DNA of 64,000 bases, from positions 682,001 to 746,000 of the forward strand of contig JANJGN010000140.1 in the NCBI GenBank assembly GCA_026770705.1, in the 5' to 3' direction. The notes under the pieces were generated by a model. That model did no database searches. It was not told the origin of the DNA and saw only the letters and a program-made list of their open reading frames with translations. Shown piece after piece: positions 1 through 43,156 of the stretch. How positions within the stretch are numbered: the first letter of the stretch is position 1; each line of letters begins with the position of its first letter. Origin of the DNA: Isurus oxyrinchus (taxonomy: Eukaryota). Made by a program: the position numbers and the translations under genes.

Positions 1-450
1 TTGGTGTAGTGCCGGGTCACCGTTCAGCCCCTCGAACTCATTGGCTTTACTGGTCAGGCTGAGGGACTGACGGGAAGCGCCATCTCTCAAACACCACCCG
101 ATACAAACACACGCATCGACCTCCCAGTTCATTATTGCGGGGATTTGAAGGCGGCAGCGTAACTGGCAGAAAGAAAAGCTCCCCTCCCCCACCTCTGTAC
201 CCCAGAGTATTGCAGGAGGACCTTTCACATCCGGATCACAATCCAAATGAAGAGTCAAAAAATTGCAGTCTCCTTTTATAAACCTGTCTCTTAGTCACAG
301 ACTTAGCCAGCGACCCGGGAACCGTGCGGCCCATCAATGATCAGAGCGGAACTGTCCTGTGCAAATCAACTCAGCACCCACCTAAATATTTAGGTCCAGC
401 TCTGAGGTCCGGTCTCCCAGTGCAGTCCGGGTCTACAGTCTCCAGCGCCC

Positions 451-461
451 CGTCATATAAA
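451..461 (+). promoter_or_regulatory. CRE half-site plus TATA box of NAR-TCR V promoter
   Basis: CGTCATATAAA about 25 nt upstream of the leader; conserved in the inverted paralog at ~18268-18278. Confidence 0.55.
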
Positions 462-482
462 CCCTCAGCTCCAGGCAGCAGA

Positions 483-965
483 ACGATTGGAATTCTCTTT
501 CTTTTCACCCTGTGTGTCCGCTTACCCCGTGAGTACCGATCAAACAAACCGACACTGTGTTTGTTTAATATAAAGCTGCCCGAGTCCATCCCAACTCCAG
601 ACAATGTCCGGGGTTTTGACCCCGCTCTGTGGTTCGGCTCTGATGGTCCATTAAACTCTCTCTGTTTAATTTCCAGGCTCTTTCAGTCAGTCAGTGGTAC
701 AGACCCCGGCAGCGGTGACCAGGAAGGAGTGTCAGTCCCTCACCATCACCTGCGTTTTCTATGGTGGCTTTTTCTCTCGTCCTTTGACGGGCGGGGATTT
801 CTTCAGACAAACCCAGACCGGGAGCGGATCTCCAGTGAGGGGAGATTTGTTGTGTCGGTGAATAAAGCAGAAAATGCATTTTCGCTGGAAATTAGGGATC
901 TGAGAGTTGGAAACACCACCACCTATTACTGTAAAGCTCTGTATATGTACAGCATGCGGTACAGT
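483..965 (+). pseudogene. NAR-TCR (IgNAR-like) V segment, pseudogene, apparently germline-joined to D
   Basis: Leader 483-528 (start mutated to ACG; GTGAGT donor). V exon from 677 reads SFSQSVVQTPAAVTRKECQSLTITCVFYGGF...FFRQTQTG. A 10-nt deletion relative to the paralog shifts the frame to RERISSEGRFVVSVNKAENAFSLEIRDLRVGNTTTYYCKA, an IgNAR-like FR3 with no CDR2. Extra FR1 Cys. No 23-RSS after V; it runs into a D-like tract. Confidence 0.9.
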
Positions 966-993
966 CAGAGTGGGGCAGACCGGAGCAAATATC
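966..993 (+). promoter_or_regulatory. 12-RSS (3' D-type), heptamer mutated
   Basis: CAGAGTG-12nt-GCAAATATC; paralogous to the D 3' RSS at 17325-17352 (CACAGTG-12-GCAAATATC). Confidence 0.85.
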
Positions 994-1306
994 TCTGTAC
1001 GATCACTGTTTAAATTCTCTGGGCCCGGATAGGAAATTGTTGGGTTGATGTTATTATCACTGTAATCTGGTTATATTTCTTGTAATTTCCACCATTCAGT
1101 TATCTTTCTTTGATAATTTTTCGGTTTATATGAAGCAAACATCTCCTTCCCGGGGCCATTTACTCAGAGCTCAGGGCCTCACAAAGAACAGTTTGAACCG
1201 ACAGAAGCTTTGAAACATTGAATATTTTACACTTATTTTAATCCGCTCAATAACTGGGCAGTTTCTACTGTCTGATGATGATTTCCCTGCAGTTTGAGGT
1301 GTCAAT

Positions 1307-1398
1307 GATTGTTGTACCGGAGAGACTGAGAGCGGGATCACTGTGCTGAAAATAAGATTATGTGGATGGATCCGGGACGGTGGTGACTGTCACAGCCG
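1307..1398 (+). other. NAR-TCR J segment (1346-1398) with 23-RSS (1307-1345)
   Basis: GATTGTTGT-23-CACTGTG, then ..DYVDGSGTVVTVTA and a GTAAGT donor. IgNAR-type DGxGT motif. Two in-frame stops at the trimmable 5' end. Confidence 0.9.
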
Positions 1399-2254
1399 GT
1401 AAGTGACTCCAAACCCCGCCGGGTTACAGCCTGTCTCGGGTAATGTTCACCGTCAGTTTATTATTGATATCAGTGGAGTTTGGGTGAGATGTGGGAGTTG
1501 ACAGAATCTGGACCATTATTGGTTTAATGGGCACATCGGGGACAACATCAACATCATGGACTCTCACGCTCTGAATCGTTTTTAATGAGCGCAGATTGTC
1601 GACAATCCGGACTCCACTCCTGGTGTGAACTGTGACCGAGGGCTCTCTGTCTGTCCCTTAGAGCCCGGGAGCGAGGTCACAGATCTCTCTACTGGGCAGC
1701 AGATTGCAGTCCGACCTGAGCAATGTGAATGAGGTACCGAGTGAATAAACTCAACACAACTATGGCCAGTTCAGATACCTGCAGCGGCTCGTTCAATACC
1801 TGACCCGGGAGAGAAATGGGAGAGTGACACAAGGGACTTCAGATATAAGACCCTGATGTGGGTCCAGATGGAATTTTATGATTGGGCAACCAGTGACTAA
1901 AATTAGTGACATTGACCCCGCCACTTCTCTCAATTGCCATCATATAACCAATCACTTTCCTCCTTTTCCGCTGTCAGATGTGCAGGTTTGGAATTGCAGA
2001 CATTTCTCTATATTGAATGTAAATGTTTGAGAAATGGGATTGCTGTAGTTTATCTGTGTCCCTGATTACTGTTAATTAAAACAGCACAGCGCACTGAGAG
2101 ACTGAGTATTGTGTATTAATCTTATAAAGGAGAACAGGTACCTTAGGAAACATTTACAATCTGGGGGAATGTTCATTTCGAAGCAGCAAGAAATAATTAA
2201 TCGAAAGGGAGAGAAGGATTGGAGAATCTCTGGCCCATTCAAATTACAATCCGA

Positions 2255-3325
2255 GCCCATGTTAGTTGATGAGGTGCATGGAGGAATGACTGAAATGGAC
2301 TCCAGTTTAGAATGTTGTGTAAAGTTATGATCTCTTTACTTAAGGAAGGACCTCCTTGTCTTGGAGCTAGTGCAACAAAGGTTCATCAGCCTGATTCGTG
2401 AGATAAAGGGATTGTCTTGTAAGAGGAGGTTGAGTAGCCTGGGCCTATGTTCCCAAGAGTTTAGAGGAATGACATGTAATTTCATTGGAACATTTAACTT
2501 CCAGGACAGTATAGATTCTCGGTGGGTGTTTCCCCAGGGTGTTAAGTCCATAACTACGGGTTACAGTTTCAGAGTAAGGATTCGGCCATGAGAAATGAGA
2601 AGAGAAATTTATTCAGTGAAATCATTGTTGTGAATCTGTGACGTTCTCTACCTCAGAGACCTGTAGTTGAGTGTATTAAAGGAAGTGTTCAATGAATTTT
2701 GGGATGCTAAAAGAATCAATGGATATGGGGACATTGCGCCAAAGCGATGTTGAAATCGAGAATGAGTCAGGCTATTACTGAATGGCGGAAAAGTTTTGAA
2801 AGGTAACATGGTCGCTCGTGCTTCTGTTTGTTATATTAACTGCTTTGATCTGTTACACCTCTGAGAAAAGAAATGAGGAACAATCCACCTCTTTGTGCAG
2901 AGGTTGAACAGGCCGGGTCTCTTGTATCTGGAGAACAGAGAAATAGGAGGAGAATTCATAGAAATCGTTTAAGCAATGGACGGGTTCATTGGAGTATTTG
3001 TGGAATAGCCGTTTATTTGTGGGTGAAGCTAGTGCCATTAACATAAGATAGTCAAAAACAGAACAAATAAAGACACGATGAAGAAGATGTGTAAAAACAG
3101 GCAGGTCAAAATGTGGAACTTGCTGCCCAGGGAGTGGTTGGAGCAAATAGTATTGATACAATTATGGGAATACTTGAAAATACAGAAGGGAGAACGGAAC
3201 AGACTGGCACAGGGAGCTGACTAGAAATTGACAATTAAATTTCAGGCAGATTGGGGCTGGTCTGCAGTAAATACACAGGGATGAATCATTTGAGCCGAAT
3301 GGATTATTCCTCTTCAGGCAGATTC
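2255..3325 (+). mobile_element. Degenerate CR1-type LINE 3' fragments (two)
   Basis: Remnant LELVQQRF...L..LGL.S...RG ORF2 C-terminus and a typical 3' UTR; boundaries approximate. Confidence 0.7.
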
Positions 3326-3329
3326 TGTG

Positions 3330-4885
3330 TAAAGTAAAACTTAGGGAAAACGCCAATCAGACCCGTCAATCAGTCAATGGGCGGAAGAAATTTGCAATTG
3401 TCCGAAGGGCGGACGAGGCAGTTCCCAGTAAGTAACTGTAAAACCACTGCAGAAACTGAACAGACTGAATCCAACCGACAACTGAAAGAATTTGGGACAA
3501 GTTCCCACGATTGCTACCTTCCCATGCAAGATGTGCAAACAGTACAAAGGAAATGGAAAAATAAAATGAAACTAAATGTAAATATATAAAAATACATGTA
3601 AAGGAGAAAAATGAAACCTATTGATAGAAGAAATTATGTTCTTTTTTTGCAAACAAATACTGATTGAAAAACATTCAATTAATCCTTCACCGTACGATTA
3701 CTTTTACAGAACCTTGGTCTCCTAAATTTAAGCTACCACAATCTGAGTATTAGTAATAATGATAGCAATATGTATCAGTGTTCCCACATTGCAGACGATG
3801 ACTCGTGTGATCGGCCACATCGGCCTCTCAGAATTCATGTTGCATGCAGATCACTGCCACTACCTGCTGAAGGGACATCTCATTAGGTTAAATGTGTTTT
3901 AAAATACAAATTGTATTTGTGGTAGCTCTGAGGCAAAACATGTTTATGTCATGCGCTGTTCTGCGCTGTTTCAGGGCAGTAGTATTCAAAATCGGAAAGA
4001 ATTTGGACAATATTTAACGTGCAAAACTTGTGTATGAAGCAGAAAGGTCTTTGTAGATCTTTCTTTTCTTTTCCGATGAATCAGATGAGGTTTATGTCTC
4101 CGATTGCACATCGGGGATCAGCGGCAGCTCATCGGGATCTACTCAAAGGTCAATTCAACAATCGACCACATTTGAGTGATGTATGTTCGGCCGAAAACGT
4201 GTGAGGCCTGTGCTCCTGAAGTCGTTCCTTGGCCATTTTCTGCCCTTTGGTTAGCTGCCTGGATTATTCAGCAGCCACATGTCCTTCTCCCCTTCAGTTT
4301 CCAGGAGCAAGGCTTATTTCAACAGAACGTGTTGTTTGATCCAGGGCAGTTTATACACAATGACAAGATTTCACCAAGGCAGTGAGTGTGAGCTTTAAAC
4401 CATGTCCCAAACACAGTTTCCACACCCATTTCATTGTCCCTCTGAGTGTGGCTTCATTTTTTATCACTGGAACTGGAAACTCTGAATTATCCAGACCTGG
4501 AAATCAAACGTTGCTTGCTGCAATCATCATTTCACCATTACTCAGTTGGACCGAATAGCGTTTTCATCTTCTGCAGATCCTGTACAATGTAAAACCTAGT
4601 GAAATCTCCACCCAGAGCACCCGGGACAGAATCAGTCAATGGGCGGAAAGAACCGAAATTGTCAGAGAGCCGGAAGAAGCAGTTCCCAGTAAGTAACAGT
4701 AAAACCACTGTGGAAACTGAACAGACTGAAACAAACCGACAACTGAGAGACTTTGGGACAAGTTCCCACGATTGTAAAAAGCACGAACAGCACAAAGGAA
4801 ATGTAAAAATGAAGGGGAACTGAATGTAAAGATTTCAAGTTTAATGGAAATGGAATAAATTAGACCCTGTTGATGGATGAAAATA
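3330..4885 (+). repeat. Direct duplication of a ~300-bp intronic element (3330-3640 and 4580-4885); third copy inverted at ~14740-15050
   Basis: Shared core GCAGTTCCCAGTAAGTAAC.GTAAAACCACTG..GAAACTGAACAGACTGAA..CAACCGACAACTGA.AGA.TTTGGGACAAGTTCCCACGATTG. Confidence 0.85.
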
Positions 4886-5546
4886 GGGAAATGGAAGGAA
4901 CGGCAGATTGGAACTCCAGAGCAGTGTTAAACTGCAGTAAATAATTGACCTTTGACCATTGATGTTCACTATCAGTTTGGCCCAATCGGATCATTAAGCT
5001 CATCGCTTTTTGTTGGATCTTGCTGTGTTCAGTGATGCAATGCAGCTGTGTCGCTACCGATTAATTATTTTTGGTAATTGATTACGTCACTGATAATAAG
5101 ACATTCCTTCCGGTTTGTCTCTCACCAAAGAAAATACAAACAGAAATTTAATATACATCACAGAAACATCCAACACGGAAGGATGACATTCAGGCACTTG
5201 TGCATTGGCTGCCCCTTTAAAAGTGCAATCCAATTGTCCCCGTTAACCAGACATTTTCCCGTAGACATGCATTTATCCCTGTTCCAGCACAGATCCATCA
5301 TCCTTTTGAAAGTTACTGTTGAATCTGCTCCTATCACCCATTTTCACCGTGCATTCCAGATGTGAATAACTTGCTCTGCAAAATAAATTATCATCCTCAT
5401 GTATCATCTTGACCACATTTAATAACCGTGAATACAGTTCGAACAGGCACCAAGTGAAGGAAACCGCAAAATCAAGAGCTATTAACAAATTCCCCCGGGA
5501 AAACAGTGGTTACGCCGAGAAATAATGTTTATTTTTGACCCTACAG

Positions 5547-5885
5547 ATTCCAGTTCTCTGGTATCCCAGAGTCCGCATTTCCAAGCCTCTGCTGCCGGTG
5601 ACCCCGTTACTTTAAACTGTGAATACTCAGGGTTCTGTCAGTACACAGTACACTGGTACTGTCAATCTCCAGGACAGGAATACCTGCTTGAGCGACACAC
5701 TTCAGGAGAGGAGAAGAAAGAAAACGCTGCCAGGGGGAGAATTTCTGCTTCTATCAATTCGGCCGAGAAAAGTAGCCAGTTAATGATCTCCAAACCACAA
5801 CTGAGTGACTCCGCTGTGTATTACTGTGCACTGAGTCGACGCATAGCGCGGTGATACAGAGCATGGAGACATCTGTACAAATACA
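5547..5885 (+). CDS. Leaderless NAR-TCR-supporting TCRdelta V (exon 5547-5846); ORF intact, 23-RSS heptamer defective
   Basis: Acceptor CTACAG|, then DSSSLVSQ...VTLNCEYSGFCQYTVHWYCQ...LSDSAVYYCALSRRI. CDR1 Cys is typical of supporting V. RSS CGCGGTG-23-ACAAATACA (5847-5885). No leader exon upstream. Confidence 0.88.
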
Positions 5886-6289
5886 TGAACATGGTGGAGA
5901 TTGCACTGCCTCCATAACTCACCATGATGCCCGGTGGATCCTGAAACAAGGGCCCCATTTCCTCAGTGGGTTGAATGGTCATAAATATCGGTGTCAAACA
6001 GGTAAGGCAACATGTTATCAAAATAAGAAACACAGTAACAACAGAGTCTCAGGCCCACAACAGTAACTTCATAAATCCTGGACCACATGGTATGGGACAC
6101 AACACACCCTCCACGTGAACAGTCGAGTTACATGAGGGAACCATCTGAAGCATGCGTAGGAATTTACATCTCTGCGAGGCATGAGTGGAAATGGTAGCTT
6201 CGATGACTGACTGACAGGTTGTATATCAATTTTCATCCCCCCCCTCCTACCCAACCAACACCACCCCCGCCCCCAAATCAACATCACAG

Positions 6290-6460
6290 AAGTAGATCAC
6301 CAGGTCATTCTCACCTTGTTGTTTATGGAAGCTTTCCGTGTGTAAATTGCCTGTCATGTTTCCCACATAAAGACACTCTAGAGCCTTTTTTGACTGTTAA
6401 GTGTTTTGTAAACTTCTGATGTCATGAAAGGCGCTTTATAAATGCATGCTTTTTTTCTTT
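6290..6460 (+). mobile_element. Deu-domain SINE (SacSINE1/AmnSINE-like) 3' fragment
   Basis: GGTCATT.TCAC.TTG.TGTTT.TGG.AGCTT...GTG.G.AAATTG and tail GAAAGGCGCT.TATAAATGCA. Confidence 0.6.
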
Positions 6461-8360
6461 CTCTATTGCAAATCAGAGCCGGAAGATGGGACTGAATTCG
6501 CAACCTGAGCGCAGTGTTAACTGTTATATTAAAACTCAGTATTTGGACCTTCTGTCTCTCGGTGTCTCTCTCTCTCTCTCCTTTTCCATTTTTCTTGCTC
6601 TCTTTGAGTGTCTTTGTGTCACTCTGTAGCTCTTTATTTCCATATCTCTATCTCTGAATTGATTTGCGTCTTGAAGGGAGTTGAAGAAAGAAATATGCAG
6701 ACAAATTAAGGAATGTAGTTAACAGAATATTAATAATAGTGCGTGCACTACCTAGTATTACTTCACCAGAAGTATGTAAAGGGGCTAAGGGAATGGAGTT
6801 CCCACAGTGTGCACTGTTGTCTTTATAAAGCAAAATGCAAAAAACGAAGAACAGCAAGGTAACGGGGAGTGAAACAAATTAGGGTGAGAAGTAAAGCCAG
6901 AAGAACATCTGGGCATTGCTGACCATAACGTTGTAATGCTTTGAGATGGGGTTAGGGGTAGAATAAGTTTTGACACCAACTAATCATCTAGTTGATTGAA
7001 CGCTGGGCAGGTAATTCCAGTGAAGCAGGATGGTCCAGTGATTGAGAAAATTAACATAAAATTGATACATGAATGCTCATGTGCGTTTGAACTCCATTTC
7101 TGCGAGTTTCTTTACCAGTGCTGCTCCCACTTTTGCTGATTAAGGAAAATGGAGGTAAGGTACTGAAGTTCTTGGGCAGATCAAAGATTCTCTTAGTAAA
7201 TGTCGAGCAGACTCGAGGGGCTGAATGGCCTCCTCCTGTTCCTATACCGGAATATTATGTCTTCAGATGCAGAGATAGGTTTTTCCGATGGAGAGAGATG
7301 CAGAGACGGGGAGATTCAGATACACAGAAAGAGAGAATGTTGGACTGACAGGGAAATAACGAGCAATTTATGTAAACAAAGACATTTTGGCAGAGTGTGT
7401 GACAATGAGGGATGCGTTGAGGGGTTTAAAAGGCAATCTTGGAAAATTGGTGCTTGAAGACAAATGAGATTTAATTGAAGGCAATTGATTAAAAACATTA
7501 AATACAGTAGTGTTTAACAAAGCAATGACATAAAATGGGCGGATGTATGAACCCCTTCTATTTCTGTGCTACATCTCCCCATTTTCTCATAGTTCAATAA
7601 GAACAACTAATAAATAAAAGGAGGTGAGGGGGAATGCTAGAGACTGCCGCTCTCAATAACCACAGTTTTCTAACCTTCTAACCCCAGTGCCTGAGAAACG
7701 TGCAGCTTTTAACCGTTTTCACTGTTCAGTTTCCTTATTTCAAACATCAAAGTAAAACGAGCGGTTCCTGCAGTGCGGTTGCCGACAGCTCGATGTCCGT
7801 TGATCAGTAGAACCGGATTTAGTCACATTGAAATCACACAATGGGACAAAATTAAAGCACAATTAGCTGGAAATCAATAACTGAAGCTGAGGGTTTTATA
7901 GAATAAGCTGCGGACTCTCTCTCTCTTTGTCTGTCTGTTTCTTTCTGCTTCTATATCTTTCTATATCTGTCCCTTTCTCTGTCTGCCCCTCTCACGCTTT
8001 GTCAATCGCTTTCTCCTTCTCCATTTAAATGTCTGGTTTTGCCTGTGCCTCCCTCCGTTGTCTCTCGCAGTCTCACCCTCCCTCTCTCTTTCTCTCTCTC
8101 ACGCACACACTTTCTGCTCTCTGCGTCAATCTTTGTCTCCATCCTCTGTATCTTTCAGTGTCTCGGCATATTTTCCTCTCTTTCTCTCCCTCTGTCTCTC
8201 ACTTTTCCTCTTTCTTTCTACTTTCCTTGGCTTTCGCTTTCCCTATAACAGGCTCTACTTTCACTGTTTCCAATCGGAAGTTACTGGTTCTTTCAGAGGC
8301 GAAGATTCAGAGTTCACACACTGAACTCCCATCATTGAGGTTATATGGCAACCCACCGAT

Positions 8361-8704
8361 AGTTTCCGTACAGGGCCTGTATTAGTTTGTATCACTGCGA
8401 ATATTCAGCACACAATAGTAAATCCCACTGGCACTCAGCTCAACATCTGTCAGGGGTAAGCTGAAAAAACGGTCAGATACTGGGGGTATTGAAAAGACTC
8501 GGCCTCCAACACGCCCTGCTTCCTGCCCTCCCTCAGAATTCATTTTGATTAAAAGCACCGGCGCCTCCCCCGTTCTTTGTCTGTACTAGAACAGATCATA
8601 TCGGCGGCTGTCCGTGGAGTATGAACAGGACAACACCATATGTCCTTCCACTATACATAATACTGATGATGCAGGTTGCTTAATTATATTTGAGCATCAC
8701 AGAC
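8361..8704 (-). pseudogene. TCRalpha/delta V pseudogene (exon 8400-8704) with 23-RSS; no leader found
   Basis: L*CSNIIKQPASS...VLSCSYSTDSRRYDLF*YRQRTGEAPVLLI...DVELSASGIYYCVLNI (two stops). RSS CGCAGTG-23-ACGGAAACT. Confidence 0.88.
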
Positions 8705-8759
8705 CTTCGAATATTCAATGAACAGAATACAAATGGATGTTTAGGTCCTAGAGACATCA

Positions 8760-9800
8760 ATGAATGCTTGTTCCTTTCCTTCATCGGACCATCATCGAAT
8801 GAGGCCATACAGCACATCATGTCTATGTAGCCTCTTTGGTAGGGGCACCAAATTGTTCCCACTCCACTGTTTGCTCCCCTTTGCCTTGCAAATTTTCTCA
8901 TTTCAAGCAGTTACCCAATTATGTTTTTGACATTTGATATTGAAGCTGCTTCCACCAACATATCCAGCAGCTTATTCCGCAGCACAACAACTCAGAGTGA
9001 AAATAAATGGCTGCTCGGATTCCCTCTGATTCTTTTGTAAATGAATTTAAATCCAAGTCCTCTGATTATGGAGCTTTCCACCACTAGATGCAACTTCCCT
9101 CATTTATTCAACTAAAACAGTTAATAATTGTCAATATCGCAAACAAATCTCCTCCCAATCTTTTATGTTGTACAGAGAACAGCCACAGATTCTCCAGTCT
9201 CACCACAAAGCTAAAGCCCCTCATCAGTTGTGCCTTCCAAGTAAATCTCTCCCGCACCTTCTCCAAGACCCTCAAATCATTTATCGTGTGTGGTTCAGAT
9301 ATTCATAGATAACAGTCCAACTGAGACCTTACCAGCTTTGTAGAAATGTTTAGCATAGCATCTTTTTCCTCTTGATAAAAGCAAGAACTTAAAATGTTCT
9401 TTACAGGATTCTCAGCCATCACTGCCAACTTCAAAGTTTTGAGCACATTGCACCGTAACCATCTCTCTGTTCCTACAGCGCTGATCAAATTGCATCATTT
9501 AGTTTATATCGGATATCCTCATTATTCCCACCAAAATGCATCATTTCACAAATACCATCTGATACAGTCCAGGCAAATTGAAATGTCCATGTCCTCCTGA
9601 AGTTTGTTACATTTGCCCCATTGTTTATTACAAAGTGAGATCCCCGTCATCTGCAAAGCCTGAACCAACTATACCAGGGATAAGTTATTACATTAATATG
9701 CTTATTGGATTACGGTTTACAAATAATTATTATGCATACATCACTGGCCCAAGTACCGAAGTTTAAGGAAAGCAGTTGTAAGCTTCATCTAAATTAAAAT
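8760..9800 (-). mobile_element. Old CR1-type LINE fragment
   Basis: Reverse-oriented degenerate CR1 3' end and RT remnants; boundaries approximate. Confidence 0.55.
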
Positions 9801-9814
9801 GAACAATTGATTAG

Positions 9815-10560
9815 GTCCATCCATCTATCCAGCCGTCATTCACTTTCACCCCTTTGCATCCGCCCGCACATCCAGCCATCCATTAATGCATCAGGCATTA
9901 TCTATCCATCTATCCTTCTATCCATCTCCCCTTTCATTCATCCATCCATCCATCTATCCTCCTCTCCGTCCTTCCATCCATCCGCCCATCCACCTGTCCC
10001 TCCTTCCTTCAGTCCATCTGTCCACCCGCCCACCCATCCATAAGTCCATCCGCCCATATGTCCATCTGTGCATGCATCCATNNNNNNNNNNNNNNNNNNN
10101 NNNNNNNNNNNNNNNNNNNNNNNNNNNNNNNNNNNNNNNNNNNNNNNNNNNNNNNNNNNNNNNNNNNNNNNNNNNNNNNNNNNNNNNNNNNNNNNNNNNN
10201 NNNNNNNNNNNNNNNNNNNNNTGTTCATCCAACAACCTATCCATCCGACAACCCACCTAATTTATTATTCCGTTTGTCACACCCTAACCCTCTTGCTGGT
10301 CACACCACAAGCCCTCATTCGTCAGATGCACGTCTATTTCAGGAAATGTCTATAGTTTTCTCCGCCTTTCTGCTTCTTTCTCTCTCTTTTAATTGAGCAT
10401 CTTCTCTCTCTGTCTCTTTTCCTCTGTCTCTCTCTTTCTTTCTCTCTGTCTCTCTCTCCCTTTCTCTCTGTCTCTCTCATTCTGTTTCTTCTTTCTCTGT
10501 CCCTCCTTTTATGTCTCTTTTTCTCTTTCTTCTATCTCTATTTTTTCTTTCTCTCCCACA
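9815..10560. repeat. (ATCC)n microsatellite containing an assembly gap, then a (TC)n tract
   Basis: Directly visible. Confidence 0.9.
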
Positions 10561-11410
10561 GATTTACGCCCCTGCAAATTCTCGCCCTTGCAAAGTCCCC
10601 CTCCCCGCAGTTTTCCACCAGTGAAAAATCCCCCTTGCAGGTTCTTTCCACCCCACAAATCCACCCTCCCCCCCGGCAAAATCTTCCATGTGCAAATTTC
10701 CCCCACCTGCAACTTCCACCCTGTGCAAATTCCCTCATGTGCAAATACCACATCCACAATTTCGACCTCCCCCCGCACATTCCGCTCTGTGCAAATTACA
10801 AACTGTGCAAACTTACTTCCCCACAAATTCCCCTCCGCAAATTCAGCCTCTGTATGTTCTATTCTCCTTTACAGCCCCACAGTTTCCCCCCATGCAAAAT
10901 TTTCTCCCTGCAAATTGGCCCTGTGCAAATTTCTACCTCCCGCAAATTTCTCCCCCATGCAAATTTACTCCCCCTGAAAAATTTCCCCCTGCAAATTTCC
11001 CAACTTGCAAGTTTGCCCCTGCAAATTTACCCCTCCAGATTATCTCCCCACTGCAAATTCCCTCGTGCGATTTTCTCTCTGTGCAAACTCCCGCCTCACA
11101 AATGTTCTGCTGTGAAAATTTCTCCCACCTTAAATTTCTCCTTGTACAAATGTCTTCCCGCCCGGCAAATTCCCTCCTGCACAAATTCCACCCCCACAAA
11201 TTCAACCCATGCAAATTTCCCCCATGTGCAAGTTTCCCCCCGTGCAAATTCTCTCTCCCCGCAATTTTCCACCTGTGTAAATTCCCCCTGCAGATTCTGT
11301 CACCCCGCAAATTCCACACCGTGCAAATTTACCCCCGCAAATTTACCCCCCAGGCCCAAATTCTCCCCTCCACAAATTACCACACCACCCCCCCCACCCC
11401 GCAAATAAAT
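10561..11410. repeat. Degenerate ~15-17-bp minisatellite, unit ~TGCAAATTYCCCCC
   Basis: About 18 exact TGCAAA cores plus many variants. Exact ATGCAAAT at 10957-10964 and 11209-11216. G-rich on the minus strand. Confidence 0.9.
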
Positions 11411-11542
11411 TCCCTAGGTTCATCATTCTGGACGGCAGTTTGAAATTCACTGGCCCCCGCGCCCCCCCCCCCCCACCTTTTTGCAATAATTTCTGTTTGC
11501 CGAATGAGTCTTCTCAAATAGATACCAACAGGTTATACTCAC

Positions 11543-11631
11543 TCAGTTCCTCGGTCAGTTTGGTTCCTGTTCCGAATATTAATGGTCTAAAAACATTCGA
11601 ATACACAATGACAAAACTCCATCTGAAAACT
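11543..11631 (-). other. TCRdelta-type J segment (11543-11603) with 12-RSS (11604-11631)
   Basis: YSNVFRPLIFGTGTKLTEEL with FGxG motif and phase-1 GTGAGT donor. RSS AGTTTTCAG-12-CATTGTG. Confidence 0.88.
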
Positions 11632-12659
11632 CAATGACACGCCAATAAACTTCAAATGGCATTCGGCACTCTTCTGGCCAGTTCACCAAGTCCCACCACA
11701 TAATGCTATTTTCTGCAGTTTGCTTGGGTTAAAAAGTTAATCCTCAAACCCTGCAATCTTGGAGATGATTCGCAGCTCTCCTTCAATTTCGCACCATAAG
11801 AAATCATGGCCGCGATATCCCAATTGACAAATCCAAGCGAGGCAGAGGGTGGGGAGAATCCTCTTTTTTACTTTCAAACGAAATTCTCAACGCATTACAA
11901 ATATGCTGCAAGTGGGGTTTCAGTAGAATTGGAAGCAAAGACAATGTACATCCCCCACCCCACCAACTGTTCCTCGACACTGCGATATTTGATGCAATTT
12001 ATGGCTGCCTGGGTTAATGGAGCATAGGGTTTTGGGCCACATTACACAATGCAACATAAACATGACTTCTAATTTCACGGAGTCTCCTTAACATTAGAAT
12101 TCAGACACAGGCACATGCATACACACACAAAACAACTAACACCTTCAAATGGCATACACACGCATACACACACAAAACGACTAACACCTTAAATACTCTG
12201 GTCTTCGTCTCAGCGTAATAAGTCAGCCATTTTGGCTTAAGTTGAGGAGATATCCCTTCACTCAGAAGGCTGCGGGCCTTTGCAATTCTCCAGCCCAGAG
12301 GGTTCAGGATGTTCAGCAGATGCCCATATTCAAAATGGTGATTGATGGATTTTCATTTGGTGATGGATAGATTTCTTGGGAGGTGGCGCTAAAGGGATCA
12401 ATGATATTGGGACAGGCCAAGAGGACATTGAGGTCGAATCTCAGTCATGATCTTATTGAACTGCTCAATGCTGCTCCTATTTATTATATCCTTAATGGTT
12501 CCCACCGTCCAGGCTGTACTATCCCACGACCCCCACACCGAACCCTGACTGACCCTGTACTTTGGGGACATTGAAGCTTCGAATATTTCGAGACTGGAGC
12601 CCTTAACCAGTGCAGTGCACAACCCCCCAGCGCAAGTGAAACTTCCCCCGCCAGTGCAT

Positions 12660-12688
12660 ACACACACTGACAGACAGACAGACAGACA

Positions 12689-12725
<37 letters not shown>

Positions 12726-12752
12726 ACACACACACGCATACACAGACACTCA
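12660..12752. repeat. (CA)n/(GACA)n microsatellite
   Basis: Directly visible. Confidence 0.9.
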
Positions 12753-13090
12753 TTCAATAATGCCTGCCTTGGTGATTAAATGCCTGTTAAAGCCTTGGGG
12801 GAGTGGTGGAGGGGGACCATTGGAATCGCGATGCACAAGGGTTGGCATCTACTTTCTGGGATGGATCCAGTCAATCGGCACCCCCTCCCTCGCACCCATC
12901 CCCATCCGCACCCAACGACAGCTCCTCACCCCAAATCCCGTTTACATCACTGACACATGAAATAACGCCGTGGCTTAACATCTAAGTCAGTTCAGTTCAG
13001 AGGAGGGAAAGAGAATGAAAATTAAATAAATAAAAGATGTGGAGTGATCCACAATGACCGAATTACTGGTTTCCACAATCAACCTGGTCC

Positions 13091-13135
13091 CGTTGTTCCG
13101 TATGTTGCACGCGGTTAAACCCGATCACAAGATCC
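13091..13135 (-). other. Candidate degenerate TCRdelta D segment
   Basis: Plus strand reads CACGCGG-12-ACAAGATCC (13108-13135), a 5' 12-RSS for a minus-strand D. The 3' RSS is weak. Position between supporting V and J fits. Confidence 0.3.
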
Positions 13136-13474
13136 ATGTTACCCACCCCCTCCACATCTCTGGGCAAAGCTGCTCCCTTGTCTGGGAGATGGATCAGGCC
13201 GGTGAATACACGGGACGTGACTTTATTATGCGGTCCTGGGTGCATTGGGGAAGGTACAAATCCCTGAATATCCAGGAGGAGAAAACAGCGCGATACTGAC
13301 AGAATGGGAAAGGGGGTAAGGGTCCTGGGCCGGGAGGCTGTGGGGGTGGTGCTGTCGGGTGGACCCAGGTTAACATCACGGGGTGGGGAGGAGGGAGAGA
13401 GGCTGTGTGTTGAGAGCAGTTGGTACCATCCCGTAGGCTATAGCACGAGCGTTGAAGGAGATTCAGCTACTGTT

Positions 13475-13693
13475 ATAAAAACAAAGAAAACTGCGGATGC
13501 TGGAAATCCAAAACAAAAACAGAATTACCTGGAAAAACTCAGCAGGTCTGGCAGCATCGGCGGAGAAGAAAAGAGTTGACGTTTCGAGTCCTCATGACCC
13601 TTCAAGGGTCATGAGGACTCGAAACGTCAACTCTTTTCTTCTCCGCCGATGCTGCCAGACCTGCTGAGTTTTTCCAGGTAATTCTGGTTTTTT
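13475..13693. mobile_element. Hairpin (MITE-like) insertion with 13-bp TSD
   Basis: Perfect 83-bp inverted arms 13520-13602 and 13604-13686. TSD TTCAGCTACTGTT at 13462-13474 and 13694-13706. Confidence 0.9.
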
Positions 13694-13733
13694 TTCAGCT
13701 ACTGTTGGTCCTTCTGTAATCCCACCATGTTCA

Positions 13734-14078
13734 GGCTTTTCTACAGCTCTCTCCATGCTCTGTATCACTGTGCTGCACGCCGACTCTGTGCACAGTAAGA
13801 CAAAGCGGAGTTGCTCCATTGTAGTTTGGAGATCTTTAACCGGCTGATTTTCTCGACGGATTCGATAGAAGCAGAAATTCTCCCCTCGACGGCGTTTTCT
13901 TTATTCTCCTCTCCTGAAGTGTGTCTCTGAAGCACATATTCCGGAGCCTGTCCGGGCGACAGACGATACCAGTGTACTGTGTACGGACAGAACCCTGAAT
14001 ATTCACAGTTTAAAGTAATGGTGTCACAGGCAGCAGAGGTTTGTACTGGCGGATCCCGGGAAATCATGGAACTGGAAT
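13734..14078 (-). CDS. Leaderless NAR-TCR-supporting TCRdelta V (exon 13773-14078) with 23-RSS
   Basis: DSSSMISRD...ITLNCEYSGFCPYTVHWYRL...LQWSNSALSYCAQSRRAA with CDR1 Cys. RSS CACAGTG-23-AGAAAAGCC. The DxAxYYC motif is eroded. Confidence 0.88.
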
Positions 14079-15479
14079 CTGGAGAATCAAAAAAAATGAA
14101 CATTATCTTTTTGTTTATCCACTGTTTGTCCAGGAGAAATTGTCGATCCCTTGAATAGCTCTGCTTTTTGTGTTAATTTTATTCGTTTGAAGCCTGTTTG
14201 AACCGTATTCACTGTTATTAAAATATGATAAAGTAGGGAATGAAGTGATTTTTTTTTCCATAGCGAATTCTCCTCATGAAGAATGCACCGTTTGAATTGG
14301 TGGTGGGAACAGATTCCATTGTAACTTTGAAGCAGGTAATGGATCTGTACTGGAAATGTAAATAAAAATATAGAGCGATGGAGAAAGTTAATGGGCCGTA
14401 GGAACAATTGGTTTGCACTTCTAAAGCGTCGGCGCCTACATGATGGGCCACATAATTCTATGAATAAAATTACATCCCTGTGTGTATTATCCCTAGTGAG
14501 AGACAAACCCGAGGGAATATTTTATGATCAATGAGGCAACCGATTTCCAAAAAAAAAAATGTTTGTTGGAGAGAAATACAGCTGTGTGACATCACAACAA
14601 GACCCAACACAAACTGATGGGAATCATCAGCACCAATTGGGCCAAAGCCAAACATCAGTGGCCAAAGGTCAATCATTTCCTGCGGCTTATAAGTGCTCAG
14701 GAATTTCTCTCGGCCTGGTGCTCTATTTCTCTAAGTTTTATCAATAGGGTCCAATCTTCTGCAGTTCAGTTCATTTGAAATATTTACAATTAATTTAATT
14801 TTATTTACTTTATTTCACATTTCCTTTTTTCACATTTACGTTGTGCTGTTTGCGCTTTTTGCAATCGTGGGAACTTCTCCCAAACTCTCTCAGTTGTCTG
14901 TTGGGTTCAGTCTGTTCAGTTTCCGCAGTGGTTTTACTGTTACTCACTGGGAACTGCCTCTTCCGGCTCTCTAACAATTTCAATTCTTTCCGTATGTTAA
15001 CTGATTCTTTCCCGGGTTCACTGGGCGGAGTTTTCCCTCAATTTTAACATTATGGAGGAAAAAGAACGCAAAAGAGGAATGGGCCATTCAACCTGTGCAT
15101 AGACTCAATTCCAACCTAATCCCCACCGAAACTTAACTGACCATTTCCATCCAGCTCCCTGGGTCGGTCTGTTCCGTAAATATATCAGTAATATCTGCAA
15201 GCACTCCCTGGGACAGCAAGTTCCATACTCTGACTTGTCTTTGTTAAAATTTATTTGTCTTAATATTCTTCTTTGTCCTGTTAATATTTTGATGGTCCAT
15301 TGCTTTGGCCTCAGCCACAAATAAACAATTTCACCAGACTAAAACCGCTCATTGTTTGAAAGGTTTCTATTAATTTTCCCAGTGTTTCCCTTTTGTCCAG
15401 AAAAAAGAGGCCCTGCCGGCTTCAACTTCCCAGAGAGATGTGGAATGCTGCTGATTTCTTTTCTCAGGCCTATAGGAAA

Positions 15480-16030
15480 TCAAAGTAGAGAATCGAATAG
15501 AAGCAGGAGGCGCCTGATCACCTTTCAAACCTGCTCAGCCATTCAGTAATATGGTTGCTGATTTTCCACCTCAACATCACATTCCCGCATTCTCCCAATA
15601 TCCCCTGATTCTGTTAGTATCCAAAAATCTGTCGAATATTGCCTTGCATACACGGTGATACTGAACACCCATCGCTCTCTGAGTTACAGAATGCCACAGG
15701 TTCGCAACAATAGTTCTTCTCAAGATTATTTTCCGTTTCTCAGTTCTAATGGATGACCCTTTCTTCTGAAGCTGTGACCCTGAGTTCTATACTCCTCAGC
15801 CTGGAGAAACTGCGACCCAGTATCTGCCCAGTCAAGTTCCCTGAAGAATATTATATGTTTTCATTAGATCACCTCTCATTCTCCTAAACTCTAGGGAATA
15901 CAGGCCCAGACTACTAAATCATTTCACAATGGATAACCTCTTCATCTTAGGAATCAGTCTGGTGAGCCTTTGTTGCACTCCTTCCAAAGCAGATGGTTCT
16001 CTCTTCAGTAATGAGACCAAAACTTTACAC
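15480..16030 (-). mobile_element. CR1-type LINE 3' fragment
   Basis: Reverse complement of the same 3' end seen at 2255-2830. Confidence 0.65.
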
Positions 16031-16925
16031 AGCATTTCAGTCTATTTCAGTCCTTCCCTCCATAAAGCTCACCCACCACGTGGTCGGATTGTACTTTGGA
16101 AGGCGCCCAGAGGTCATACAATCCTTCTCCCCCTTTCGCTGAGCTATTTCTTGCTGGTTCTAAATGAACATGGCCCCAGTTTATAATTGTTCCCTATGTT
16201 CTTGCTCTCCTTTATAAGATTAATGCATTATCCTCACTATCTCACTGCATTTTGTTGTTTCCATTAACAGTAATCAGGGATACAGAAAAATTACAGCAAT
16301 CCCATCTCTCAAACATCTACATTCAAGATAATAAAGTGTCTGCAGTTCCAAACTTTCACATTTCGGTCTGAGGTCAGAAAGGCAGGAAAGTAATTGGTTT
16401 TCTGAAGACAATTGAAACAAATGGCGGGGGCATTGTCACTAATTTCAGTCACTGATTATCCAATAATAAAATTCCATGTAGACCCACATCAGCACCTCTT
16501 ATATCTGAAGTCCATTGTGTCACTTGCTTGTTTTACTCCCGAGTCAGGTATCCGAATTGGCCGCAGTTATGTTGAGTTTATTCACCTGGTTCCTCATTCA
16601 CATTGCGCAGCTCGGACTGCAAACTGCTGCCCAGGAGAGAGATCTGTCACCCCGCTCCCCAGCTCTAAGGGACAGGCAGAGCTCCCTCGGTCACAATTAA
16701 CACCGGGAGTGGAGTCCAGATTGCTGACAATCTGCTCTCGTTAAAAGCGATTCAAAGTGTGAGAGTCCGAGATGTTGATGTTGTCCCCAATGTGCCCGTT
16801 AAACCAATAATGGTCCAGATTCCGTCAACTCCCACATCCCCCCAAACCCAACCGATATCAAAAATAAACTGACGGTGAACATTACAAGGGACAGTCGGTA
16901 ACCCGGCGAGGTTTGGAGTTATTAC

Positions 16926-17008
16926 CAGCTTTCCTGGGTCCATCCACAGAATAATATTTAGTAACCCACCACAGTGACACCACTCTCAGTTTCCCCGGTA
17001 CAACAACC
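16926..17008 (-). pseudogene. NAR-TCR J pseudosegment (16926-16969) with 23-RSS
   Basis: GGTTGTTGT-23-CACTGTG, then ..VDGPRKA| GTAAT. An internal deletion removes the TVVTV strand present in the paralog at 1346. Confidence 0.85.
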
Positions 17009-17324
17009 ACCGACAACTCAAACTACTGGGGAATCATCATCAGACAGTAGAAACTGCCCAATTATTCAGCGGATATAAATAAATAAACAATATTCAATAT
17101 TTTAAAGTCTCTGTCTGTTCAAACTGTTCTTTGTGAGGCCCTGAGCTCTGAGTAAATGGTCCCGGGAACGAAATGTTCTCTTCATATAAACCGAGAAAAA
17201 TGATTAAAGAAAGATAACTGAATGGTGGAAATTACAATGAAATGTAACCAGATTATAGCAACAATAACATCAACCCGACAATTCACTGTCCGGGACTGGA
17301 GAATTTATACTGTGATTGTGGAGA

Positions 17325-17397
17325 GATATTTGCTCAAGTCTCTTCCACTGTGACTTCCCCATCCAAACACACAGTGTTACAAGTCAGCATGAAATCC
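17325..17397 (-). other. NAR-TCR D segment (17353-17369, TGTTTGGATGGGGAAGT) flanked by 12/12 RSS
   Basis: GGATTTCAT-12-CACTGTG, D, CACAGTG-12-GCAAATATC. Confidence 0.88.
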
Positions 17398-17724
17398 CCT
17401 GGGTACTTGGTGCGCTGTGGGGATACTAGGTAAACAGCTGGGACTGCGGTTCCCGGTTCCAGCTGTTAGACCAGGATCACATCTGGTGTTAGAGGTTTGT
17501 AACTGGGATTAGTCATTCCCAATCCCCATTCACTGACACCAATCCCGGGAAAGACATCGCCATCCGCACACACTCGACATTTATAAAACTCAAGATGTTA
17601 ACGGCAATAATCCAATCTTATTATACACTAGACTGTGGGGCAGGCGGTGTGAGGCGGAACCGTGGGGGGTTTCACTGCAGATTAACTCCGTTTTTTTATT
17701 TGATTCTGTAATAATCTGCAGTGA

Positions 17725-18246
17725 GAGTTTTTATATCGCGGGAAACCGAGACCCGTCGCCATGTTCTTCGTACTCGTACTGAGCTTTACAGAAATAGGTG
17801 GCGGTGTCTTCAACTCTCACATCCCGAATTTCCAGCGAAAATGTATTTTGTGCTTTATTCAACGACTCAACAAATCTTCCTCCGCTGGAGATCCGCTCCC
17901 GCTCTGTCCCGGTCTGGGTTTTTCTGAAGAAATCCCCGCCCGTCAAATGTCGAGCGTAAAAACCACCATAGAAAACATAGGTAATGGTGAGAGACTGACA
18001 CTCCTTCCTGGTCACCGCTGCCGGGGTCTGTGTCAATGACTGACTGAAATAGCCTGGAAATTAAACAGAGAGAGTTTAATGGAGCATCACAGCAGATTCA
18101 CAGAACGGGGTTAAACCCCAGACATTGTCTGTAATTGGGATGGGCTCGGGCAGCTTACTATTAAATCCACACAATGTCGGTTTGTTTGATTGGTACTCAC
18201 TGGGTAAACATACACACAGGGTGAAAACAAGAAAGATTCCCATCAT
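17725..18246 (-). pseudogene. NAR-TCR V segment, unrearranged (leader 18201-18246, V 17764-18053); probably non-functional
   Basis: Leader MMGIFLVFTLCVCLP. V reads QTPAAVTRKECQSLTITYVF...RERISSGGRFVESLNKAQNTFSLEIRDVRVEDTATYFCKAQYEYEE. Canonical first Cys replaced by Tyr. RSS CATGGCG-23-TAAAAACTC has a defective heptamer. Confidence 0.9.
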
Positions 18247-18656
18247 TCTGCTGCCTGGAACTGAGGGTTTATATGACGGGGAGCTGGAGACTGCAGCCCT
18301 GGATGCACTGGGAAACCGGACCTCAGAGCTGGACTGAAATATTTTAGGGGGATCGAGTTTATTTGCACAGGGCAGTTTCGCTGAGATCATTGATGGGCCG
18401 CATGGTTCCCCGATAGGTGGCTAAGTGCTGTGTGAATAAGAGACAGGTTTATAAAAGGAGGCTGCAATTTTCTGACTCTACATTTGGATTGTGATCAGGA
18501 TGTGAAAGCCCCTCCCACAATACTCTGGGGTACAGGGGTGGGGGAAGGGAGCTTTTCTTTCTGCCAGTTGTGCTGTTGCATTCCTTTCCCCACAGTGATA
18601 AACTGGGAGGTCGGTGCATGTGTTTGCATTGGGTGGTGTTTGTTAAAGGTGGAATG

Positions 18657-42472: not shown

Positions 42473-43156
42473 GTGGGGAAGCATCTCGCTCCTCTCCTCA
42501 TCTTTATATCTCTTCTCAGTAAGTATTCCTTTCCCAGTAAAACTCCATTCTCCTCCTGTCTGCTGTAACCCAGATGTTATTGTTGTTAAAATAATAGTGA
42601 TGGCGGTGTTGGTGATTATGTTGATCAATAGGAGGCTGGCGCTGATTGTCTGTTACTATTATTTCTGTTTGAATGGAGCTATCAACACACAGTGGAACAA
42701 CGGATTCCTAAAATAACGTCAAAAGCAGAAAGTAATGTCACAGTGACCTGCACCTAGAAAACAAGTGATTCAAGTCCAAATGTGTACTGGTACCGTCAGC
42801 GCCCCGGGAATCCTCCAATGTACATGTTTCGTCTTATTAGCCGGAATGTGCAAACGAACACCGACCTCAATGATTGGTTTCCTTCCACGTTTGATAAAAA
42901 TAACAAGATTACCGAGCTAACAATCAATGGATCGTTAGCTCGGTAAACTTGTTATTTTTATCAAACGTGGAAGGAAACCAATCATTGGGGTCGGTGTTCG
43001 TTTGCACATTCCGGCTAATAAGATGAAGATCCGTTGATCGTTAGCACAGTCATCTTGTTATTTTTATCAAACGTACTGATCCCCGATACCTCCGTGCACT
43101 TCTGTACCATGGACCCCACACTGCTGCAGTGATATAGCGGGTTCTGTACAAAAACC
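42473..43156 (+). pseudogene. TCRAD V pseudogene with internal fold-back inverted duplications; RSS spacer 24
   Basis: Leader remnant 42473-42518. V reads VEQRIPKIT..VTVTCT*KTS..VYWYRQRPGNPP..TELTING[inversions]LIPDTSVHFCTMDP. RSS CACACTG-24-ACAAAAACC. Confidence 0.85.

Follow-up and report, generated by a model that had tools for sequence, protein, structure and literature searches.

Do two NAR-TCR cassettes that face each other across one J segment form a receptor locus of their own? We addressed this question in Isurus oxyrinchus, in a 64,000-nt stretch of contig JANJGN010000140.1 (C140; positions 682,001-746,000, forward strand), here called the window. NAR-TCR is reportedly, after Criscitiello in 2006, a doubly rearranging TCRdelta of cartilaginous fish. 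A preliminary description had proposed that an 18.6-kb unit in the window is a self-contained, now decayed mini-locus with its own (D)J. Our analysis shows instead that the unit is almost certainly a dead duplicate, a broken relic of the TCRdelta region that exists in eight copies. It probably consists of two unrelated NAR-TCR cassettes on either side of a stray D-J1-J2 head, without a C exon, and has two inherited joins that germ-cell RAG likely made.

Two convergent cassettes and their copies

Self-comparison of the window gave three segments of inverted homology between the left and right arms: 88-943 versus 18642-17777 (85.6%), 963-3629 versus 17355-14736 (73.5%), and 4578-5905 versus 15059-13715 (72.0%). 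Together with the placement of the J, these bear out the convergent arrangement. Excerpts of PMC1845163 describe a NAR-TCR as a NAR V with a leader, a cysteine in the a-b loop, no WYR tryptophan, and its own D and J, with a leaderless supporting Vdelta downstream that has a CDR1 cysteine and a 23-RSS. Both arms share these features (the left leader has lost its start by mutation, and the tryptophan missing is the canonical one), so their identification as NAR-TCR cassettes holds. The features of the two arms and of the DNA between them, the J region excepted, are as follows.

486..528, plus strand: left NAR-TCR leader exon, start codon lost (ATT) in 8/8 copies
677..965, plus strand: left NAR V exon, 10-nt frameshift deletion near 818, germline-joined to D (paralog comparison)
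966..993, plus strand: D 3' 12-RSS, heptamer mutated (CAG for CAC; sequence)
1307..1398, plus strand: left NAR J, coding 1346-1398, 23-RSS 1307-1345, splice donor (sequence and copies)
5547..5885, plus strand: left leaderless supporting Vdelta, CDR1 Cys, broken 23-RSS 5847-5885 (sequence and copies)
8361..8700 (5' end approximate), minus strand: decayed conventional TCR V remnant with degenerate 23-RSS (sequence comparison)
10082..10221, no strand: N stretch inside a simple repeat
13734..14078, minus strand: right leaderless supporting Vdelta, open frame, CDR1 Cys, 23-RSS 13734-13772 (sequence and copies)
16926..17008, minus strand: right NAR J, 15-nt deletion removing the last beta-strand in 8/8 copies, 23-RSS 16970-17008 (copies)
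17325..17397, minus strand: right NAR D (17353-17369), 12-RSS on both sides (sequence and copies)
17726..18053, minus strand: right NAR V exon lacking its first canonical Cys in the window copy, degenerate RSS with 22-bp spacer (sequence and copies)
18201..18246, minus strand: right NAR leader exon, intact (leader scan)

No leader-like exon was found within 600 nt upstream of either supporting V, in agreement with their description as leaderless. The same scan gave leaders for the right NAR V and for two of three conventional Vs. In the right arm, as in 33 unjoined paralogs, the RSS order V(22/23)-12D12-23J provides a D and a J of its own that are 12/23 compatible. The 12/23 pairing proposed for both supporting Vs with the J is as described, but the left supporting-V heptamer lacks CAC in 7/8 copies. 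On the right, the two heptamers are 2169 nt apart, which fits the ~2.1-kb deletion that had been envisaged. A mis-join at the N stretch was ruled out because all seven other copies cross it collinearly, with the same flanks spaced ~90-140 nt apart. The orientation across the gap was therefore confirmed.

The arms had been read as a mirror duplication, and this did not survive comparison with other paralogs, many of which are closer to each arm than the opposite arm is. Among non-copy paralogs, the cross-arm match ranked 22/63 and 43/62 for the NAR V and 14/20 and 16/20 for the supporting V. These low ranks rule out inverted self-duplication of one cassette. By sequence, the two arms are distant paralogs, and both are broken in all eight copies. 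Decay of the unit was evident, with lesions shared by 8/8 copies whose arms are 97.3-99.3% identical. The left frameshift and lost ATG and the right J deletion, each common to all copies, would prevent functional double rearrangement.

Three copies are on C26, two on C140, and two on C210, and pairs differ by ~1-3%. Haplotype duplicates are unlikely to be the source of most copies, because several share one contig and because pairs differ to this extent; some unplaced contigs may be alternates. The duplication is recent and covers at least 41 kb; on C210 the block extends over 84 kb or more and includes a tandem unit of ~41 kb. The convergent arms are unrelated cassettes that were placed next to each other, likely by a germline join, and later copied passively.

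Inherited joins

The left arm had been described as V-D-J in germline order. However, its V is already joined to D. The V-RSS, a ~400-nt spacer, and the D 5' RSS are all absent from the junction zone (~941-965), and the joined V tail plus D is 27 nt long, compared with ~30-40 nt when unjoined. Loss of both RSS and the spacer with slight end trimming is what a RAG coding joint leaves. The leader intron is retained, and retrotransposition was therefore rejected as the source. The same join, in frame, is in an 86%-identical paralog at C26:29.84 Mb. Its presence in eight copies and in this paralog indicates that it is inherited rather than somatic, and there is little doubt that RAG would have made it in germ cells.

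Joined ends are common elsewhere. We classified 73 NAR V ends in 0.96 Mb of DNA, a set enriched for joined forms by the pattern searches through which the DNA was chosen: 33 were unjoined, 24 were V-D joined, 12 were VDJ joined, and 4 were other. The 24 V-D joined ends have six junction lengths (22-37 nt), and all have lost both V-D spacer ends and kept the D 3' RSS. A pattern search for VDJ exons with a longer CDR3 returned 0 matches. However, two such exons were seen by alignment, and the pattern counts of joined exons are therefore lower bounds. In two places, a NAR D 5' 12-RSS and a supporting-V 23-RSS are also joined exactly head to head as signal joints (0 control matches). Therefore, these two RSS types react in the germline.

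The second join is in the J region. A TCRdelta-type J with a 12-RSS is present on the minus strand, as described. It is not a single shared J, since a J1 remnant and a Ddelta remnant with a 23-RSS adjoin it.

11408..13473, minus strand: stray copy of a TCRdelta D-J array head (D 3' RSS, J1, J2), 71-81% to C26:29.927-29.929 Mb and C242:590-592 kb
11543..11631, minus strand: Jdelta2 paralog, coding 11543-11603, 12-RSS 11604-11631, FGxG and donor intact, last strand mutated (copies and J comparison)
13067..13135, minus strand: Jdelta1 remnant, central ~24 nt deleted (J comparison)
13436..13707, minus strand: degenerate Ddelta 3' 23-RSS interrupted by a palindromic high-copy insertion of 232 bp (13-bp target duplication; 2/8 copies)
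13708..13723, minus strand: point where the supporting-V spare-RSS array meets the Ddelta remnant (next array heptamer and D 5' 12-RSS missing)

The best match of the J is J2 of a real array (score 61, next 27, among 103 J-like segments on C242), and in two real D-J-C arrays the J and its flank align with J2. In the alpha/delta locus this match is placed after D and before the first C, with C labels taken from locus order, which supports Jdelta orthology.

Tandem spare 23-RSS repeats with a ~62-bp period accompany 22/22 other supporting Vs compared; the supporting V at C26:29959887, without spare RSS, is an exception. In the window, homology to these arrays ends 2 nt before the next heptamer and passes into the 12-16-nt D of a ~12-kb duplicated head. 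The pair removed is a 12/23 pair, as in a RAG coding joint, and 8-10 nt of microhomology blur the breakpoint. Contigs from organism A (X1) and organism B (X9 and X20; two samples, two studies; 24 differences in 282 nt) bridge the junction. Therefore, the junction is inherited. These contigs, with the paralog that shares the left V-D join, rule out a somatic rearrangement caught in the assembly.

We consider RAG the probable agent of this join. The same dead duplicate could also have formed if the supporting V was fused to D by ordinary microhomology-mediated deletion, which we regard as unlikely. The array flank shares 8-10 nt with the real D, and the 16 nt in the window, the real D's length, match the C242 D at 13/16, which equals the ~81% local divergence. 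Microhomology fusion of an intact D therefore fits nearly as well, and about one base separates the two readings. It also counts against RAG here that spare-RSS arrays end near heptamers at other junctions, for example in the left arm. However, such a deletion would have had to break inside a 12-16-nt D and remove exactly a 12/23 pair, and the same RSS types formed exact signal joints twice. Furthermore, excerpts of PMC2193156 describe trimming and little N addition in shark Ig germline joins, and homology at the joint would therefore not exclude RAG. A pattern search allowing one mismatch found no reciprocal Ddelta signal joint, which is expected because a deletional join would lose it.

A RAG origin was also considered for the left supporting-V flank junction near 5905 and was dropped. 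The spare-RSS array there stops 4 nt before a heptamer and has no real RSS partner; it adjoins a V-array repeat that has a heptamer-like 7-mer but no nonamer.

With RAG as the agent, the unit could have arisen in four steps. The head of a TCRdelta locus would first have been duplicated beside a NAR-TCR cassette in the opposite orientation, in which V and D were already joined. At C26:29.84-29.87 Mb there is a sister of this state that retains an intact D 5' 12-RSS. The second cassette was then likely brought in by a 12/23 deletional join of a spare 23-RSS to the D 5' 12-RSS, which would have produced the convergent look. Both cassettes would have decayed, and the block would have been copied at least eight times.

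The missing C exon

An autonomous TCRdelta locus needs an intact D and J and a downstream C exon. The D in the unit has no 5' RSS, J1 has a deletion, and J2 is nearly intact. No C exon was found in C140:662-746 kb (C140 is a 1.3-Mb contig) or in any of 11 units examined. Across the genome, searches gave two exons of Cdelta type and one of Calpha type, all on other contigs or at least 1.36 Mb away; these labels depend on locus order and on a 69% match to a basking-shark model. The Pfam C1-set score was 20 bits (cut-off 21), and a PDB search gave generic Ig C matches only. Joining of a supporting V to the J would thus yield no receptor, because the product could not be spliced to a C exon and would have no functional NAR V upstream.

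Might the right supporting V and the J2 paralog still rearrange somatically, as a nonproductive RAG sink in thymocytes? Most copies do have usable 23- and 12-RSS 2.17 kb apart. However, there is no sign of selection (dN/dS of the right NAR V is 0.76, on few changes), and a repeat is inserted between the segments in 2/8 copies, which makes this very improbable. Less credible still is a once functional mini-locus in which both supporting Vs used a private J. In its favor, the convergent geometry and 12/23 pairing are real, the J retains FGxG, a donor, and a near-native RSS, and the right supporting V has an open frame, both canonical Cys, and a good heptamer in 4/8 copies. Against it, a C exon is missing from the vicinity, the J duplicates J2 of a real array and has D and J1 remnants beside it, the arms are distant paralogs, and the NAR V and J lesions are common to all copies.

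A predicted three-V chain and germ-cell RAG

Three cassettes are fully intact (C140:190-200.6 kb, C26:35.936-35.946 Mb, and C26:31.165-31.154 Mb). Each has a leader, a rearranging NAR V-D-J, a fixed joined NAR VDJ, and a rearranging supporting V, in that order. All their splice sites are phase 1, and the middle joined exon is leader-dead. They predict a TCRdelta chain with three stacked V domains, in which the fixed CDR3 Cys would bond the a-b loop Cys of the V above. At C26:38.75-38.77 Mb, three joined exons are in series. Tentatively, germ-cell RAG may have rebuilt the NAR-TCR locus repeatedly, with selection keeping leaderless joined NAR VDJ exons as an internal domain and the window unit a dead by-product. 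We found no report of a TCR chain containing at least three V domains in the literature searched, which excluded the four main shark TCRdelta papers. PMC12227049 has locus coordinates in table S1 that could bear on novelty.

Comparisons with known systems draw on excerpts of the papers cited. The window cassettes depart from NAR-TCR as described there in that both are pseudogenes, V and D of the left one are joined in the germline, the right one has its supporting V fused to a stray Ddelta-J head, and tandem spare RSS arrays accompany the supporting Vs. In sharks and skates, germline-joined Ig genes show coding-type joins with RSS loss, trimming, little N addition, and repeated origin (PMC2193156, PMC2193153). 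The joins here are likewise inherited, coding type with RSS loss, trimming, and little N addition, and made more than once, but they are in the TCRalpha/delta region, include chromosomal signal joints, and probably include a join through a noncoding spare RSS that restructured the locus. Pre-assembled V exons in TCR loci also occur in the newt (TRD V-J; PMC12698447) and in marsupial TCR-mu, where the joined V is the inner domain of two and is attributed to recombination and retrotransposition (PMC3457774). In contrast to TCR-mu, the shark joined exons keep the leader intron, are of NAR type, and have a rearranging NAR V on one side and a rearranging supporting V on the other. Birds have duplicated or translocated TCRdelta D-J-C clusters (PMC3457774). 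The shark genome similarly has a second D-J-Cdelta cluster at C26:29.90-29.93 Mb, with a C exon of 92% identity and no Jalpha array visible over the following 130 kb, whereas the window copy is a D-J1-J2 head only, with no C.

In shark Ig clusters, RAG activity in the germline is established, and its reshaping of TCR loci has been proposed (PMC2193153). The window unit itself is a pseudogene. The TCR locus studied here contains coding joints and exact chromosomal signal joints as well as a join that probably restructured the locus, and one join is common to two organisms. The timing and frequency of germ-cell RAG activity can therefore be tested through comparisons among shark genomes. Should the leader-dead joined exons be retained by splicing, sharks would have a TCR chain with at least three V domains.

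Copies of the window unit and the source of its J

The window (682001-746000 of contig C140) comes from a 4.98-Gb genome. It is surrounded by a very large TCR V array, and its nearest named proteins are gene models from white shark and basking shark. A preliminary description saw in its ~18.6-kb unit two inverted NAR-TCR cassettes converging on a J. Comparing the window with itself upheld the inverted arms (72-86% identity), and both have the anatomy that PMC1845163 gives for NAR-TCR: a NAR V that has the a-b loop Cys but no WYR Trp, followed by a supporting V lacking a leader and bearing a CDR1 Cys. The J at 11543-11631 is a real J. The arms are not sister copies of each other. All seven other genomic copies of the unit are collinear through the N stretch between the arms, so the arm orientation stands, and a mis-join there, which would have refuted the inverted arrangement, is rejected.

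First-look genome searches yielded 168 NAR V candidates and 125-129 supporting-V candidates, of which 40 were scored per search. All 10 candidate matches to the J region were covered, eight at 97-100% identity and two at 80-82%. The eight are copies of the whole unit, their arms diverging by 0.7-2.7%. On C210, another contig of this assembly like C26 and C242, the duplicated block takes in all 84 kb comparable there, with a ~41-kb tandem unit. The left arm has lost its ATG and carries a 10-nt frameshift in 8/8 copies, and the right arm has a 15-nt J deletion in 8/8. Seven of the eight have a broken heptamer at the left supporting V.

The two weaker hits each correspond to J2 in a real D-J array. 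On C242, a D (590.2 kb) is followed by 11 J-like segments (a count from one pattern) and a C exon (617 kb), and then by 92 further J-like segments and another C (749.6 kb). Segment order and a 69% match to a basking-shark model suggest TCRdelta followed by TCRalpha. A second D-J-Cdelta cluster lies at C26:29.90-29.93 Mb (29899000-29934000); it has three C exons, the first open and 92% identical to that of C242, and no Jalpha array was seen downstream. Among the 103 C242 J-like segments, the window J best matches J2 (score 61 versus 27), and window 11408-13473 is a copy of the array head, containing J2, a J1 that has lost ~24 nt, and the 3' 23-RSS of the D. Neither C140:662-746 kb nor any of the 11 units examined contained a C exon, and both Cdelta-type candidates and the single Calpha-type candidate from genome searches lie outside them. 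J and C segments were searched with general motifs, and RSSs were judged by the consensus in PMC2193153.

The unit had been thought a self-contained mini-locus with its own (D)J, now largely decayed. However, its J was copied from a D-J array and is not private, there is no nearby C exon, and all eight copies share lesions. Therefore, it is a pseudogene rather than a mini-locus, a dead duplicate carrying germline recombination scars; the preliminary description holds in part.

Conventional TCR V segments that carry 23-RSS occur elsewhere in the window (20000-64000); most are on the minus strand, and the plus strand has three (43117, 44393, and 46339). A 200-bp palindrome (42828-43027) sits within one such exon, whose RSS spacer is 24 bp (43117).

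Inherited V-D joins and signal joints

An unjoined cassette reads V, 22/23-RSS, ~400 nt, 12-D-12, ~320 nt, 23-J. The left-arm V instead leads into the 3' end of the D, with 27 nt from the last framework codon to the D 3' heptamer; it retains its leader intron and has lost both inner RSSs and the spacer. A paralog at C26:29.84 Mb (86% identical) carries the same join, in frame. We classified 73 NAR V ends from 0.96 Mb of DNA as unjoined (33), V-D joined (24, with six junction lengths), VDJ joined (12), or other (4), a set enriched for joined forms because many were chosen by pattern, so no genome-wide frequency follows. At C26:29986953 and C26:30013390, the NAR V lacks the V-D spacer and the D 3' RSS is degenerate; a CDR3 start similar to basking shark model P0001 suggests an old V-D join.

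Two of the four other ends are signal joints in which a NAR D 5' 12-RSS meets a supporting-V 23-RSS exactly, heptamer to heptamer; these may be products of one event.

Signal joints (no control hits)
C26:29964819, D-J-supporting V excised
C242:380224, D-J-supporting V excised

The joint types match V(D)J recombination products as defined in PMC2193153, from which we infer that RAG in germ cells made the V-D joins and signal joints. A loose end in organism B, one of two organisms (A and B) whose contigs were compared with the unit, hints at the same signal-joint form. At C26:29872897-29872902, a supporting-V-type 23-RSS lies head-to-head against CAC in a repeat homologous to window 7212-7876, a possible cryptic-RSS signal joint.

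The join of a spare-RSS array to Ddelta

Extra 23-RSS repeats follow all 22 other supporting Vs examined, as tandem arrays of 2-7 with a ~62-bp period; one further supporting V elsewhere had no spare 23-RSS. These arrays might serve as decoys or substrates for RAG. In the right arm, homology to them stops at 13713, 2 nt short of the next heptamer; the sequence then passes into a Ddelta remnant that lacks its 5' 12-RSS; the sister paralog at C26:29.857 Mb retains this RSS and the upstream region. Contigs were aligned on a unit copy without the inserted repeat. In organism A (X1) they bridge the junction over 128 nt with 0 differences, and in organism B (X9 and X20) over 282 nt with 24 differences and no gaps. 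Therefore, the join is inherited and older than the split of A and B. Other contigs diverge exactly at the junction point, into a heptamer. We propose that this join explains the convergence of the arms.

RAG probably made it, because the break sits in D, the 12/23 pairing matches, and signal joints are nearby. An almost equally good fit is microhomology repair of an intact D: the array flank and D have 8-10 nt in common, and 16 nt of the window match the C242 D at 13/16 positions and the C26 D at 10/16. The three features favoring RAG weigh against this repair.

The left supporting-V array (window 5886-5910) stops 4 nt short of a heptamer, at a junction with a V-array repeat; C242:166.7 kb has a similar one.

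Joined NAR VDJ exons and a predicted three-V chain

Earlier work documents germline joining in shark Ig (PMC2193156), marsupial TCR-mu (PMC3457774), and newt TRD V-J (PMC12698447), and NAR-TCR as a two-V chain (PMC12227049, PMC5931798, and PMC6795676). In the literature searched, with Criscitiello 2006 and 2010, Deiss 2019, Ott 2021, and supplements outside the search, we found no report of NAR-TCR with germline joins, of spare RSS arrays, or of three-V chains.

The genome yielded 12 joined NAR VDJ exons belonging to one family. Ten are still open and flanked by acceptor and donor sites, and two lack most of the V; in all 12, the leader contains a stop and its donor is altered. Mean pairwise dN/dS was 0.40 (nine distinct sequences; pairs not independent), versus 0.76, from few changes, for the dead right-arm NAR V. 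Three joined exon pairs had 0 indels in the exon versus 2-6 in the flanks. C26:38.76 Mb has two more open joined exons, one of which lacks an ATG. C26:38750000-38769000 has three joined exons in series before one supporting V, all with a CDR3 Cys, and two match the join in white and basking shark models. CDR3s matching joined exons occur in models P0002-P0005 from these sharks (models, not transcripts).

Many NAR-TCR cassettes at C242:488000-549000 and C26:29949000-29965000 point the opposite way to the nearest D-J-C, and rearranging them would require inversion.

Upstream of the joined exon lies a NAR D-J or V-D-J, with no intervening supporting V, in 6/6 cassettes mapped. Three were checked in full, and all leaders, frames, splice sites, and RSSs are intact, with one V heptamer weaker.

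Intact cassettes (leader-dead joined NAR VDJ between a rearranging NAR V-D-J and a supporting V)
C140:190000-200600
C26:35935900-35946450
C26:31154500-31165100

P0003-P0005 are modeled with a leader, and therefore the joined exon might also be used as an outer domain. Alternatively, it might be skipped. Our prediction from these cassettes is that splicing of the joined exon would yield a TCRdelta chain with three V domains.
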